NCBI GenBank assembly: GCA_010356995.1
Contig: ML996707.1
Coordinates: forward strand, 248,001 to 312,000
Length of the DNA: 64,000 bases
Origin: Trichodelitschia bisporula
Lineage: Eukaryota
Direction of reading: 5' to 3'
Positions 15,767 to 51,847 of this stretch are shown in pieces; position 1 is the stretch's first letter; each line of letters opens with the position of its first letter. The notes beneath the pieces are model-generated. The model did not search any database, was not told the DNA's origin, and saw only the letters and a program-made list of their open reading frames with translations. The translations under genes were made by a program, and so were the position numbers.

Positions 15767-16798
15767 TGCGTGCGAGATTGAGAAGTGGATTCCAAGAAGA
15801 ATGATGTTCGTCTGACTGACAACGAGAGGAGGACTGATCGGTGTCGTTAAAAGGCTGGAGTGTGGCAAACTGCGCAGGGCAGTCGTGAAAAAGAAGCGTG
15901 GCAGTGTCAACCAAGTAGTGTCCAACTGGCTGGACGGTGCAAGAGCGTTGTGGGGTATGGATAGCTGCGTGACACTTTGACGGCTTTTCCACTTGGTTGG
16001 GGAGGCCTTGGCGGAAGTTGGTTGTGATGATTCGCTCCTGGAGTGCGGGCTTGCGCTCCGCCGGGCCCTGTTTTCTCCTTGACTCTTGCCTTCGGGATGG
16101 TGGTGAAGGTGTGGTCGAACTTGGTGACACACGACAAAGAAACAGCTCGAGTACAATCGCAAATTTTGCCTCTTATCGCCAGCACGAACCTTGGTACACG
16201 TGACGTTTATCAGGACCAATTCATGCCCCTCTTTTGTGCCTCATACTTCTGCTCTTACTATCAGTTAGGCCGAAATCTTGCAAGGAACTGAAACACCTGG
16301 CCGCAATCAGCATTGACGAAGCCATGTCCTTGTGCAACAAGCCGTCGCCGCAGGGGCACGCGCGCTGCCTCGACGACATCTCGTCCTGCGAAGTTTGCGC
16401 TGGCAAAAAAAAAGATCAGACACTTTCGTCTTGTCCCCAGCGAGAATCGAACTCGCGGCCTTCGGATCGCTCAACACTGGGTGCTGATCATACAGAGTAT
16501 GAGACCGACGTGATAACCGACTACACCATGGAGACATGGCTTCCGATGGCGAAAAAGTGCAAATTTGTGATTTGGTTGCAATTCTGATGTGAGAGAAATT
16601 CGCTGCTTGCTGTCAGCCCGCCACAAAGGACAACATCTAGACTTATCCCTTTATGCTGCTTCATTGTTTTTTTAAGTCTAGAGAAATCGGCCCGCCCTAC
16701 GGTAATTGTCTCCTGTGGTTCGCGGGAGTGGCCGTGCGCCATTCAGGCCTTCCCCACGCCATCGCCAGCCAGCGAGTAGCATCGCGAGACTTCAGCCG

Positions 16799-39150: not shown

Positions 39151-39245
39151 AGGTCCTGCCCGGATTCGAACCGGGGTTACCGGAAAGTGTGAATTCTGAA
39201 CTGAAGATCAGAATCCGATGTGATAACCAACTACACTACAAGACC
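39151..39245 (-). tRNA. tRNA-Gln(CTG) with a ~22-nt intron after position 37
   Basis: Reverse complement GGTCTTG TA GTGTAGTTGGTTATCAC A TCGGA TT CTG A [TCTTCAGTTCAGAATTCACACT] T TCCGG TAAC CCCGG TTCGAAT CCGGG CAGGACC T, followed by an oligo-T Pol III terminator. Confidence 0.95.
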
Positions 39246-47853: not shown

Positions 47854-50800
47854 TTAAAAAGCCACACGAGTCCTCATTTCCTGTTCAAATTAGCCTTTGC
47901 AAAGTCAACAAGCGCAGAAAGAACATACCGAAATCTTCCTCTCGAGCTCACGAACGGTCCGTCCCATATCTCCGGCCATTCTCTCTTTCACGGTACGATC
48001 CAGTCTCACAAATCGCTCGCACAAGTCCCCATCGATCATGCCCTTGACTGGGACATAGTAACCACGATAAATGAGGTGGTCCCTCCCGGTGAGAGGCGCA
48101 TCTTCCGCTCGCATCTTCGTCTCCAGCTCCTGGAAAAAATCGACGTCTTCGCGGCTGACAAAGGGGATGAAGATGCCGAGAGTGCCCTGCAGACCAGACC
48201 ACAATAGGAGATCGCGCCCGCCAGCAACAAGCGACGTCTTCTGGATCGACGTGGGAATATCTTGACAGTAGAAGTGCACCATCAAGTCGAGGCGATGTGG
48301 AGTGCCTTGAAGGTAGGCGCGCTCGTGGAGAAGGTGAGCACCGCTGCCCTCCTCATCCGCCTCATCGCTCGCCTTTTGAGGACAACGCACGAGCCAGATG
48401 TTGCCAAACTTGTCACCACCCGCCGTAGTCTCATAGTCCACCATGGCGGTAGCCGAGGTCCACCGGGAGATGCTATCGTCGACAAATGGGATGAGCCTGT
48501 TCTCTTGCTGCTTGTATACAACGTAGGTAACGCTCTCTTGAACATCGGAGCAGATGATGCGAGAACCCTGGGTATCCAATCCGGTGAGGAGGTTCGGAAC
48601 CGCGTTAAGAGCCTGTGCCTTCCTCAACAATTGCCGCATCCCGAGGTCGAAGATGAGCAAGTTCGGACCGATACCAGCAAGTACTCTGCCTTGGAAGCCA
48701 AGGAGCGCCGTTGGAGGTTGGTCGACCTTTGTCTTGTGGATGAACTCGAGCGACTTTCCGTTGTCCTGGAACCGGTACACATGAATGTAACCGCAAGTGA
48801 ACTGTCGAGGTGACATGATCATGTCTTTTCCAGTACCGATCAAGAGGAATATCTCGTCATCTTGTGATAAGAACGGAACCATGGCCATACTGATCGCAGC
48901 TTCATTTTCGTCCAGGTCGATAGTTTCAAGCACTGACTTAGACGTGACAGGGTCGACGATTTGGATGCAAGACGCCCAGTGCCGCTGGGCGCGAGGGTAT
49001 CCAAACTCGTCGGGAGGGAGAGTAGCAGCATCGCCATTAACAACCGAGGGATCCTTCAGAAGCCGTTCGCAGGTGGCAGGAGACAAGGTGTTGTTGTCCG
49101 AGCCGATGACATAGAAGAGGGGATGCTCGGGGTGTCGGGCAAACTTTCGAGGGGTACGAGCCAGCGGTATCGACTCTTGCAGGAGACTGTCAGATAGCCG
49201 GGGGATTTGGAAGAGACTATACAATTAGCGAGTGAACCTCATTGATTGCTGAACGTGTATAGGTGTATCAAGGCATCAGAAGGAACAATTGGATTTGGAG
49301 GTTGTGTCCTCATTGGGATTCGGAAAGAGCATAGTTTTTCACATCATTGAGCCAGAGCAGAAAAGGAAAAGAGGAAACGTACCGAAGATGATCTTGTTGG
49401 ATACCCACTATGCCGCTCGTGCACTGCTCGCTGTTGAAGCTCCATCCCCATTCCAACGGAACGTATTCCAGAGGCGTGAGGACAAAGGTCTTCGTCTGCT
49501 CGTCAGCGTACCCTAGCCACGCGCGAGAGCTGAGGGCCAGAACCGCCGTCTGTTCCAAGATGGTAACCCGAGAGAGTTTCACTGGCTTCGGTCCCAGGAA
49601 GCGAGTTCGAGTGTCTGAAAGATCGCCCGTTGTCTCGTCGAGGACAGTGCGGATATAGACACCCGAGTAGAGACCAATGTGAAGATACAAGGTTGAGCCT
49701 CCAGAAGAAGTGTCAGCCATGGACATGATGCTGAGAGATGATGGTGCCGATGTCAATGCTTGTACGGAACGGTTCTCCAAGCACGAGCCGGGATCCACGC
49801 TCAAGACGCGAACAGTGGAGTCGTCACAACCCACAGCCAGAAAACTGCTTCTCTGCCGACCAACAGGCACTTCACCCAGGCTAAGGCACGTTACAGTGCC
49901 AGTCATCTGCTTCTTGTCTTCGTATTCGTTCAAATTGCCGTCAACATCGGCCTCGAAGTAGACGATTTCGCCAGAGCTGAGTGCAACAGCGACCTGCTGT
50001 TGGTTGGTTGAAGCTGCGACGATCGACCGATGCTGAGGTGCAGGCCAGTCGCTCTGAGTGCCATTGGCAGAAATGTGCCGAATGCCTTTCGGATGGACCT
50101 GGATCAAGCTATCTTCGCCCAGCTGTTGTATAGCCAGGGTCGGAACAGTAGTGAGGAAACCAGTATTCGAAACTTGCTCAACGGTCTCTCCGATGCTCAA
50201 GACAAGTGTGTACGTAGCCATAGAGATGACTATGTACGCGTCGAATTCGTCATCGCGCCGGAGCTTCGTGGTCCACACCATTGTCGGAACATCCGGGAGC
50301 TTGGACTCAACCAGTTCAGATACCTCTAGGCCATGCTTCAGAGTTTTGAATGCGCTCCTTGCTCCCGTGCCGCAGATAGTGTAGATCTGGGGCGCGTCGT
50401 CATCGGTCAGATTGGCAGCTTTGCAATCCAGCAATGGGTTCATGGTCTCAATGCTCTCCGTCAATGTGATATTGTCCGGCGGATGAGGGTGGAAAAACGC
50501 CGGCTCGTACGGCGCCTTGGGATCTGCAGGGTATTGGTCGCTGTCGAACTCTTCCCCACCATCATCTCCCAGTTTTTCAAACTGGTAGAAATGGTGGTTG
50601 CCTGTCTCCGCAGCAACGTACAAGAAGCCGCTCTTTAGGATGCAAAGATTAGTCGCAGGCGGGACGGTATCAAAATACTTAATCCTGATACGCTGAACCT
50701 CGGCCGTCGGCTGACCATTCGCATCCTCAGCCAGATCGATGGTGAGCTTGAAGAGATCACCGTCCTCGGTCTGGAGCAGGAAGAAGAAAGCTCCACGCAT

Positions 50801-51847
50801 CTTGTGCATCACGCCGGCTGTGATGTAGCGCTTCCGCTGAGGATCTTCTGTAGCTCCCCTTCTCCGCGGGATGATGACGCGGAAGGCCTCCTGATTCGGA
50901 TGGCGGTATGTGATATTCTCCTCGCCACAGACAAGCACACCACTGGGCCCATCAGTGCCACCAGGGACCTGAAAGAGCATATTGGCAGTCCTGTCCACCG
51001 TGTCAGTCCACTTCCGGACCACATGGTTCAGGCCGAGATCCAGTTCGTAGTACACAAGCGTCTTCTCAATCTCCTCATACGCGATCCCAGTGGGGTCTTG
51101 CTCCGCATCGCCGTAGTCAACCTCCAGTGCTGCGAATACCGGGTTTTCATACCCAACATCCAGGCCCACCATCGCGAAGACGAGCGTTTGCGGTTTGTGC
51201 GCCTCCAGGGGCGAGGAGATTGTAAGTTCTGCCTGTGCATTTCGGTTGAGCACGTAGACAAGTTTGTTCTTCTCCACCGACGCAATCATGCAGGCGCGCC
51301 CCTTGGGGTCGGTGGCGAGGTACTGTCCCGGGACGACGCGTCGCACACCAGACTTGCCGAATGTTTCTAGGTGGATGCGGCTGAAGCGGTTCTTCGCGGG
51401 AATGTACTCGATGATGCTGATTCGACCGGAGTCAGAACCGATGATGATGTAATCTGTATTCCCTCAGCCATGAACTATGCAGCCGTTTCTGCTAGCTCGA
51501 GCAGCGCGTCTGAGGCGAAAGACGTCGTGTCGGTGGATCCGTGCTGCTCGGCATCTTCGAAAATCACTATTTGAACCTTCGGGTAGGCACACACGAAACT
51601 CACCTTTATTGCTGCCCGCCAGGCGGAAAGCCGACAGAGAGCGGATCGTTGAGAAAGCATCGTGGCTGAGAATGGGCATGATTTTGCCCTGCACCGCATC
51701 TGGCCGATGAAGCGTCAGACGCGAACCGGATGCTGTGAGGATCTGCTGCTCCTTGGTGCCAGCAAAGTTGCCGAGAATGGCTTGAGTGACGGCAGATGGC
51801 GGCTGCAGCGTCAGGGAGTACATGAACATGGACGAAGTTGTCGCCAT
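47854..51847 (-). CDS. RSE1: Pre-mRNA splicing factor Rse1 / SF3B3 (4 exons)
   Basis: [84 protein letters not shown]; last exon EMRTRVAF*. Confidence 0.97.
49272..49353 (-). ncRNA. Intronic box C/D snoRNA, snR41/U62-like guide for 18S Am541-equivalent
   Basis: Within RSE1 intron 49217-49382: ggctca ATGATGT (C) ... CTATGCTCTTT CCGA (D') ... ATGAGGA (C') ... TCCAATTGTTCCTT CTGA (D) tgcc; the D guide is complementary to conserved 18S AGGAACAAUUGGA. Confidence 0.85.

Follow-up and report, generated by a model that had tools for sequence, protein, structure and literature searches.

The intron in front of the last exon of the RSE1 (SF3B3) gene in Trichodelitschia bisporula raises the question of whether it carries a non-coding RNA gene of its own and, if so, which RNA this is and how widely it is found at the same place. 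The window, by which we mean the whole stretch of 64,000 nucleotides (nt) that was analysed, covers positions 248,001 to 312,000 of contig ML996707.1 (GenBank assembly GCA_010356995.1); coordinates below are window positions. The original prediction, made from the letters of the window, had placed a box C/D small nucleolar RNA (snoRNA) in this intron. Overall, we conclude, with a probability of about 0.9, that the intron encodes a box C/D methylation-guide snoRNA, a counterpart of Nc CD13 from Neurospora crassa, snR41-I from Schizosaccharomyces pombe, the snR41 A541 guide and U62/SNORD62. This reading is carried by the anatomy of the element, by the spliced intron, by perfect complementarity to 18S ribosomal RNA (rRNA) in the canonical register, and by the fact that many distant fungi have kept the boxes, the guide and the host intron.

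The RNA and its host intron

The host gene is read from the minus strand and contributes the following features:

49383..51453, minus strand: RSE1/SF3B3 exon upstream of the host intron (translation P0002; the 5' limit, 51453, was set by the reading frame alone)
49217..49382, minus strand: host intron of 166 nt, GUACGU...UAG, with a CUAAU branch site at 49228-49224 (X3 and X4 contigs skip exactly 49217-49382)
47905..49216, minus strand: RSE1/SF3B3 last exon, including the stop codon (translation P0001)

The upstream exon matched the Pfam families Beta-prop_RSE1_1st (1.5e-86) and Beta-prop_RSE1_2nd (4.1e-95), and the last exon matched CPSF_A (5.1e-98). In the PDB, the host protein was closest to 5hy7_A, a 'putative pre-mRNA splicing protein' that we take to be from Chaetomium thermophilum (E 5e-184), followed by human SF3B3 (E 2e-105). 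RSE1 of Saccharomyces cerevisiae was a far more distant match in the same search, and DDB1 appeared at about 1e-12 only. Judged by its predicted translation, the host gene is the SF3B3/RSE1 orthologue, in agreement with the original prediction.

One contig each of runs X3 and X4, which come from one sample and whose kind is only guessed as RNA, joins 49216 directly to 49383. The joined exons translate across the junction (19 residues read), and the unspliced stretch is retained whole in DNA run X1. Since the X3 and X4 contigs make this join, intron 49217-49382 is real, and its length of 166 nt is as predicted. The accompanying claim that this is about three times the local norm was not supported by the sole comparison: the inferred intron 51454-51603 of the same gene is 150 nt long. 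The latter intron (minus strand, the first of the gene, GUGAGU...ACAG) was drawn from the reading frame only; it gave no coherent snoRNA signal, its scattered weak Rfam matches all being on the opposite strand.

Within the host intron, the snoRNA is composed of the following elements:

49272..49353, minus strand: box C/D snoRNA, 82 nt when delimited by the GGC/GCC stem (from sequence, the match of profile R1 described below and a pile-up of weak Rfam C/D matches)
49353-49351, minus strand: 5' half of the terminal stem, GGC (from sequence)
49347-49341, minus strand: C box, AUGAUGU (from sequence)
49336-49324, minus strand: 5' antisense element, a putative D' guide, AACUAUGCUCUUU (its core, CUAUGCUCUU, recurs in relatives)
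49323-49320, minus strand: D' box, CCGA, degenerate (from sequence)
49313-49307, minus strand: C' box, AUGAGGA (from sequence)
49293-49280, minus strand: D guide, UCCAAUUGUUCCUU (from 18S pairing; position 5 is the U at 49284)
49279-49276, minus strand: D box, CUGA (from sequence)
49274-49272, minus strand: 3' half of the terminal stem, GCC (from sequence)

Thus, the four boxes and the short terminal stem lie where they had been predicted. The arrangement is that of the box C/D class, with a C box near the 5' end (its last base being U, not the A of the RUGAUGA consensus) and a CUGA box towards the 3' end. The segment from C box to D box, both included, measures 72 nt, and the corresponding distance is 65-84 nt in the RSE1-hosted relatives described below. 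The snoRNA starts 29 nt past the 5' splice site and stops 55 nt before the 3' one, and from the end of box D to the branch A there are 51 nt, a distance near the optimum for splicing-dependent processing.

An Rfam search of the intron had been proposed as a check. At a permissive threshold (positions 49150-49450, E up to 10), nine weak matches to C/D-box families fell on the candidate intron, all of them on the strand of the gene and seven spanning roughly 49267-49359. The best of these matches at the snoRNA was SNORD35, with 18.1 bits and an E value of 0.15, and none of the nine reached the gathering score.

The guide, its predicted 18S target and its known family

Pairing of the guide was judged on stand-in rRNA sequences, namely eukaryotic ribosomal DNA (rDNA) contigs in prokaryotic assemblies, found with a search pattern that combined two published 18S target motifs of N. 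crassa. Delimited by Rfam, this set comprised five complete 18S sequences (1795-1800 nt), 5.8S genes, one complete large-subunit (LSU) sequence and partial LSU sequences. The 18S pattern search of viral contigs returned 0 matches.

In all five eukaryotic 18S sequences, the D guide forms 13 Watson-Crick pairs and one G-U pair, with no mismatch and flush with box D. The duplex spans 18S positions 533/534/535 to 546/547/548 in the five sequences and scores 13.5, the next-best duplex anywhere in the rRNA sets scoring at most 10 when the 20 nt upstream of box D were scanned. Guide position 5 (U 49284) faces an A at 537, 538 or 539 in each of the five. An antisense element should offer at least 10 nt of pairing beside box D with its target opposite position 5, and the duplex found here has 14 base pairs (bp) in precisely this register. 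Even with one mismatch allowed, the window contains a single copy of the 13-mer antisense to 18S, against 0.05 occurrences expected from 100 shuffles. The predicted pairing with a conserved 18S segment is therefore borne out by the 14-bp duplex in the five stand-in sequences.

The predicted modification site, the A equivalent to yeast Am541 and human Am590, was likewise recovered, since position 5 faces the published target A of Nc CD13. A single site is described under three numberings, as Am541 for SnR41 (RF01218), Am590 for U62a (RF00153) and Am543 for AtsnoR41Y (PMC3511168). Nc CD13 itself (GenBank EU780937) is an 84-nt N. crassa RNA cloned from a complementary DNA library, marked 'Intron' and assigned to 18S-Am538 (PMC2780460, Table 1, Additional files 1 and 4). 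Its published duplex pairs 5'-CCAAUUGUUCCUUCUGA-3' with 3'-GGUUAACAAGGAG-5' at 18S-Am538, and its listed homologues are snR41-I in S. pombe, snR41 in S. cerevisiae, snR41Y in Arabidopsis and U62A/B in human (PMC2780460). The name of its host gene is given neither in the main text of that paper nor in its Additional files 1 and 4.

A comparison of the window RNA with the published Nc CD13 entries (PMC2780460) shows that guide and D box, CCAAUUGUUCCUUCUGA, are identical at 17 of 17 bases and that the 18S Am538 target is common to both. Both RNAs are intronic and of similar length (84 nt in Nc CD13, 82 nt in the window), and both have a C' box of the UGAGG type and a CUAUGC string in the 5' half. 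They differ elsewhere: the C box of Nc CD13 is the canonical AUGAUGA, its C' box is preceded by a GCC-UUCG-GGU hairpin, and the remaining sequence has diverged. S. cerevisiae snR41 (RF01218) and human U62A/B, or SNORD62 (RF00153), of clan CL00068, have the same modification site as the window RNA.

It is also important to consider a second site linked to this family. Yeast snR41, located in the snR41-snR70-snR51 cluster (PMC3596301), is also named as the yeast homologue of Nc CD9, the Gm1122 guide, so that one yeast RNA represents both sites (PMC2780460, Table 1). A split arrangement is listed for N. crassa, with CD13 and CD9, and for S. pombe, with snR41-I and snR41-II (PMC2780460). The 5' half of the window RNA gave no match scoring 8.5 or more to the Gm1122/1126 site, CAAGGCUGAAACU, which is the target of Nc CD9; the nearest match was at 1105-1117. 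On account of this absence of complementarity, the window RNA appears to be of the split snR41-I type and not a double guide of the S. cerevisiae type.

By its guide, predicted target, layout and profile, then, the window RNA belongs with Nc CD13, snR41-I and U62. Both the RNA family and the 18S site are long known, and the window RNA is an additional member. As family and target are textbook knowledge, the RNA itself comes as no surprise.

Finally, we would like to comment on the source of the stand-in sequences. Loci L118-L149 are eukaryotic rDNA contigs within assemblies labelled bacterial (Streptomyces, Nocardia, several metagenome-assembled genomes and others), which is evidently a matter of contamination. 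One of these contigs, L130, is 24 kb long, contains three rDNA repeats spaced at about 10.2 kb, and has its LSU gene interrupted by a group I intron.

Relatives in the same intron

The metagenome scan used a pattern made of the guide and D box only (CCAATTGTTCCTNCTGA) and was thus blind to the host. It returned at least 117 loci, most of which match by chance, in DNA that looks coding and varies in G+C content. When the flanks of the matched loci were searched by tblastn with the two window exons, RSE1 exons were found to flank 27 loci among the matches listed (L036 on one side only). At these 27 loci, the upstream exon ends near P0002 residues 694-714 and the downstream exon starts at P0001 residues 1-4, that is, at the position of the window intron. 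In 26 of the 27, a C box with at most one mismatch precedes the end of box D by 65-84 nt; the remaining one, L036, is cut by the contig end. The original prediction had named the orthologous introns as the place where it might fail; boxes and guide are kept in the RSE1 introns of these metagenome relatives.

A splice-junction search gave a candidate in 24 loci and none for the window, L001 or L057; L036 lacks the upstream flank. In 17 loci the junction was a clean '...LR|IF...' in phase 2, with introns of 126-211 nt, and the remaining seven picks were misfits of the heuristic. Among the clean junctions, the distance from the end of box D to the 3' splice site was 53-78 nt in 16 of the 17 and 35 nt in L013.

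Identity of the RSE1 pieces to the window protein ranges from about 77% down to about 40-50%, and intron numbers are much higher in the more distant genes. The L010 fragment stands at the same distance from 5hy7_A (237.6 bits) and human SF3B3 (237.2 bits), and L060 is nearer to 5hy7_A (430.7 vs 299.6 bits). Such a spread of identities, together with the scores of L010 and L060, indicates that the link between snoRNA and intron reaches well beyond the window's own group. Many of the 27 loci are near-duplicates (L069 equals L098; L096 resembles L107; L006 resembles L024; L007 resembles L010, L037 and L092), and the set amounts to roughly 14-16 distinct lineages.

Overall, at least 31 loci look like snoRNAs, of which 27 lie in the same RSE1 intron and four have another host; the figure is a lower bound because six non-RSE1 loci have a C box with one mismatch. 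A NOP10 intron hosts the RNA at L038:851-947 and at L077:787-888, the upstream exon matching the Pfam family Nop10p at 5.7e-15 and 1e-15, respectively. These two RNAs have the same 18S guide, the full C/C'/D layout and a common 5' element, GUGAAGCGUUCCUA. The RNA at L033:2433-2525 sits in a GT-AG intron of a gene other than RSE1 and is very like those of the RSE1-hosted loci L030 and L044, a resemblance that suggests a moved or duplicated copy. Locus L050:1006-1121 lies outside RSE1 in AT-rich DNA and has a longer 5' half. Apart from these, at L053, matched on the minus strand, two GGGAUGA motifs precede the guide pattern, spaced like a C and a C' box; the surrounding DNA looks eukaryotic and lacks RSE1, and the locus may be a divergent member of the family.

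We aligned 29 relatives, leaving the window out (alignment A1). The UGAUGA core of the C box is invariant in 29 of 29, and the C' block, xUGxGGA, is nearly so, with G47 and G50 present in at least 90% of the sequences; the invariance of guide and CUGA arises by construction, the relatives having been chosen on them. The place of the D' box is taken by CCUA, CCGA, CUGA or CCCA, often followed by a short hairpin before C'. Terminal stems of differing sequence recur, with at least four contiguous pairs in 18 of 30 and at least five in 12 of 30. Among 870 mismatched-flank controls, each made of a 5' and a 3' flank taken from two different loci, the corresponding shares were 22.5% and 5.7%. Profile R1, built from the sequences of the 29 relatives without the window, found a sole match in the 64 kb, at 49271-49350 on the minus strand, with 33.5 bits and an E value of 2.2e-9 that rests partly on the 17 of 98 profile positions fixed by the selection of the relatives.

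Competing readings and the host link

Could the RNA have a second task besides the A538-541 site? Its 5' element might direct another modification or an auxiliary pairing, and the distribution of this element makes the idea worth weighing. The core CUAUGCUCUU is common to the window, L096, L107 and L032, with variant forms in L069 and L001. In the same loci, the stretch that separates C' from the D guide has diverged beyond recognition and cannot be aligned. Other lineages have quite different 5' elements. In L057:2428-2525, the 5' guide ending at a CCUA box makes an 11-nt perfect Watson-Crick match to LSU (GAAAUACCACU, positions 2908-2918 of the L130 LSU sequence), and this lineage seems, from the match, to have a different and clean second guide.

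For the window, the 5' element gave only G-U-rich or mismatched duplexes and no clean target among the stand-in 18S, 5.8S and LSU sequences, which were the targets covered. No other complement of AACUAUGCUCUUU exists within the 64-kb window. Two candidate targets were rejected. In the pairing with 18S 187-201 the D' box itself takes part, and the duplex does not hold in L032 and L069; the pairing with positions 1807-1820 of the L130 LSU is interrupted by a central mismatch and has no counterpart in L138.

The 5' strand of the 18S segment GGGGGAGUAUGGU (1105-1117 in L138 numbering) makes the best candidate; here position 5 would face A1110, which lies 13 nt upstream of the Gm1122/1126 site. When the window, L096, L032, L069 and L001 were held in a fixed canonical register against 9,692 rRNA windows, 18S 1106-1119 (L138 numbering) came out on top in both 18S sets (summed run 52, minimum 9 bp), and the differences between members at this site are transitions that preserve pairing (Y opposite G, R opposite U). 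However, the helix is rich in G-U pairs (eight Watson-Crick and five G-U for the window), the runners-up at 47 and 45 leave a small margin, and a 13-bp run with G-U pairs is expected about 0.3 times by chance per element on a rough estimate. The D' box is degenerate. The main text of the N. crassa paper, including Table 1, lists no Am near 1110, and Nc CD13 is entered in Table 1 with a D guide only (PMC2780460). A second guide function in the window RNA is unlikely in our judgement.

Several observations weigh against a working A541-type guide at this locus. The C box of the window ends in U, where all 29 relatives have A, and the terminal stem is just 3 bp (GGC/GCC), or 4 bp in an alternative form. 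Folding energy is no better than that of shuffled sequences, whether the intron (z 0.87) or the snoRNA together with its flanks (z 1.09) is folded; C/D snoRNAs usually give no thermodynamic folding signal. Across the window, no snoRNA reached the Rfam gathering score, two tRNAs being the only matches at that level. The models RF01218 and RF00153 do not match the RNA in 49150-49450 even at E up to 10, and therefore we file it under the functional guide family and not under those Rfam models; among 12 loci of relatives, L092 alone matches the snR41 model, with 27.7 bits vs a gathering score of 50 and in partial overlap with the snoRNA. To these points we add the selection-fixed positions of profile R1 and the duplex having been judged on stand-in 18S sequences, not on that of Trichodelitschia bisporula. 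The RNA-like evidence at the locus consists of the spliced contigs alone, from runs of guessed kind, with no RNA read over the intron.

Part of this would fit an inherited family member that is decaying or inactive here, with methylation guided by another genomic copy, e.g., in NOP10 or another host. The C-box ending, the weak stem and the degenerate D' box could all be signs of such decay, and the same guide does occur in other hosts (the NOP10 introns of L038 and L077 and another intron in L033). Yet the guide is intact over 14 nt in exact register, the C', D and 5' elements are undamaged and agree with those of the relatives, and the intron is spliced. As for the C box, AUGAUGU is also found in the Rfam consensus lines of bona fide SNORD35, SNORD24 and SNORD98. 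We consider decay or inactivity quite improbable.

In favour of a mere cluster of motifs that arose by chance in a long intron, the C, D, C' and D' motifs are indeed short, no Rfam match reaches the gathering score, and folding is unremarkable. Such a cluster is nevertheless hardly credible: the 13-mer is unique in the window and stands in the exact canonical register, the same arrangement recurs in the same intron of 27 RSE1 orthologues with protein identity down to about 40-50%, the profile match has an E value of 2.2e-9, and the other inferred RSE1 intron gave nothing comparable on the strand of the gene.

The two tRNA genes mentioned above lie at 39151-39245 and 16432-16535, both on the minus strand, and score 53.8 and 52.9 bits with the Rfam tRNA model. 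In each of them the anticodon loop is followed by an intron-like insertion, of 24 and 32 nt, respectively.

Returning to the methylation-guide snoRNA, we may outline how it would act. It would be transcribed within the RSE1/SF3B3 pre-mRNA and, following what is generally known of the class, released from the excised intron by debranching and exonucleolytic trimming to about 80 nt, stable RNAs of the class measuring some 70-100 nt. The core proteins of the small nucleolar ribonucleoprotein, which in this class are Snu13, Nop56, Nop58 and fibrillarin, would assemble on the C/D kink-turn and protect the RNA. The 14 nt upstream of box D would then pair with 18S rRNA, and fibrillarin/Nop1 would presumably add a 2'-O-methyl group to the A that faces guide position 5 (Am538 in Neurospora, Am541 in yeast, Am590 in human).

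What remains to be discussed is the host. Vertebrate SF3B3 had been said to host SNORD111/111B, and this agrees with the literature: human SNORD111A and SNORD111B, each in an SF3B3 intron of its own, are box C/D snoRNAs like the window RNA, but they target 28S G3923 and belong to another family (PMC6124571). Correspondingly, the SNORD111 model did not match the window RNA in Rfam (49150-49450, E up to 10), and the window guide targets 18S. Parallels in fungi are RPL7-snR59 and NOG2-snR191, in each of which, as in the RSE1 link, one snoRNA is kept at one intron position of one protein-coding host gene across many fungi (PMC8476143); the hosts of these pairs act in ribosome biogenesis, whereas the RSE1 product is a protein of the U2 small nuclear ribonucleoprotein (snRNP), in its SF3b part.

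The main text of the paper on these two pairs names neither RSE1, SF3B3, NOP10 nor snR41, and its PomBase 'ncRNA in intron' table has no prp12 row (PMC8476143). The word 'host' is absent from the main text of 'The fungal snoRNAome'. In the literature covered we found no prior statement of a fungal RSE1/SF3B3 host link; the supplements of 'The fungal snoRNAome', which lie outside that coverage, may bear on it. Our new point is small: one fixed RSE1/SF3B3 intron appears to host an 18S-A541 guide snoRNA in many divergent fungal lineages.

It is tempting to go further and suppose that the pairing of A541 guide and RSE1 intron is ancient, including lineages whose SF3B3 is as far from that of a filamentous ascomycete as from that of human, and that the 5' guide has been re-tooled lineage by lineage, as the LSU match of L057 and the candidate Am upstream of Gm1122/1126 in the window's group might illustrate. 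We regard this scenario as rather doubtful at present. If such an ancient pairing were true, the production of a ribosome-modifying RNA would be tied to the splicing of a core U2 snRNP gene.

As it stands, the snoRNA represents a non-coding gene that annotation based on open reading frames would miss, and it would explain why this RSE1 intron is kept and long. If the host link holds in named genomes, it would be a third deeply conserved pair of fungal host intron and snoRNA, beside RPL7-snR59 and NOG2-snR191, and the first such pair in a spliceosome gene. It would then also provide a handle on the reasons why certain introns are hard to lose and on the turnover of second guides.

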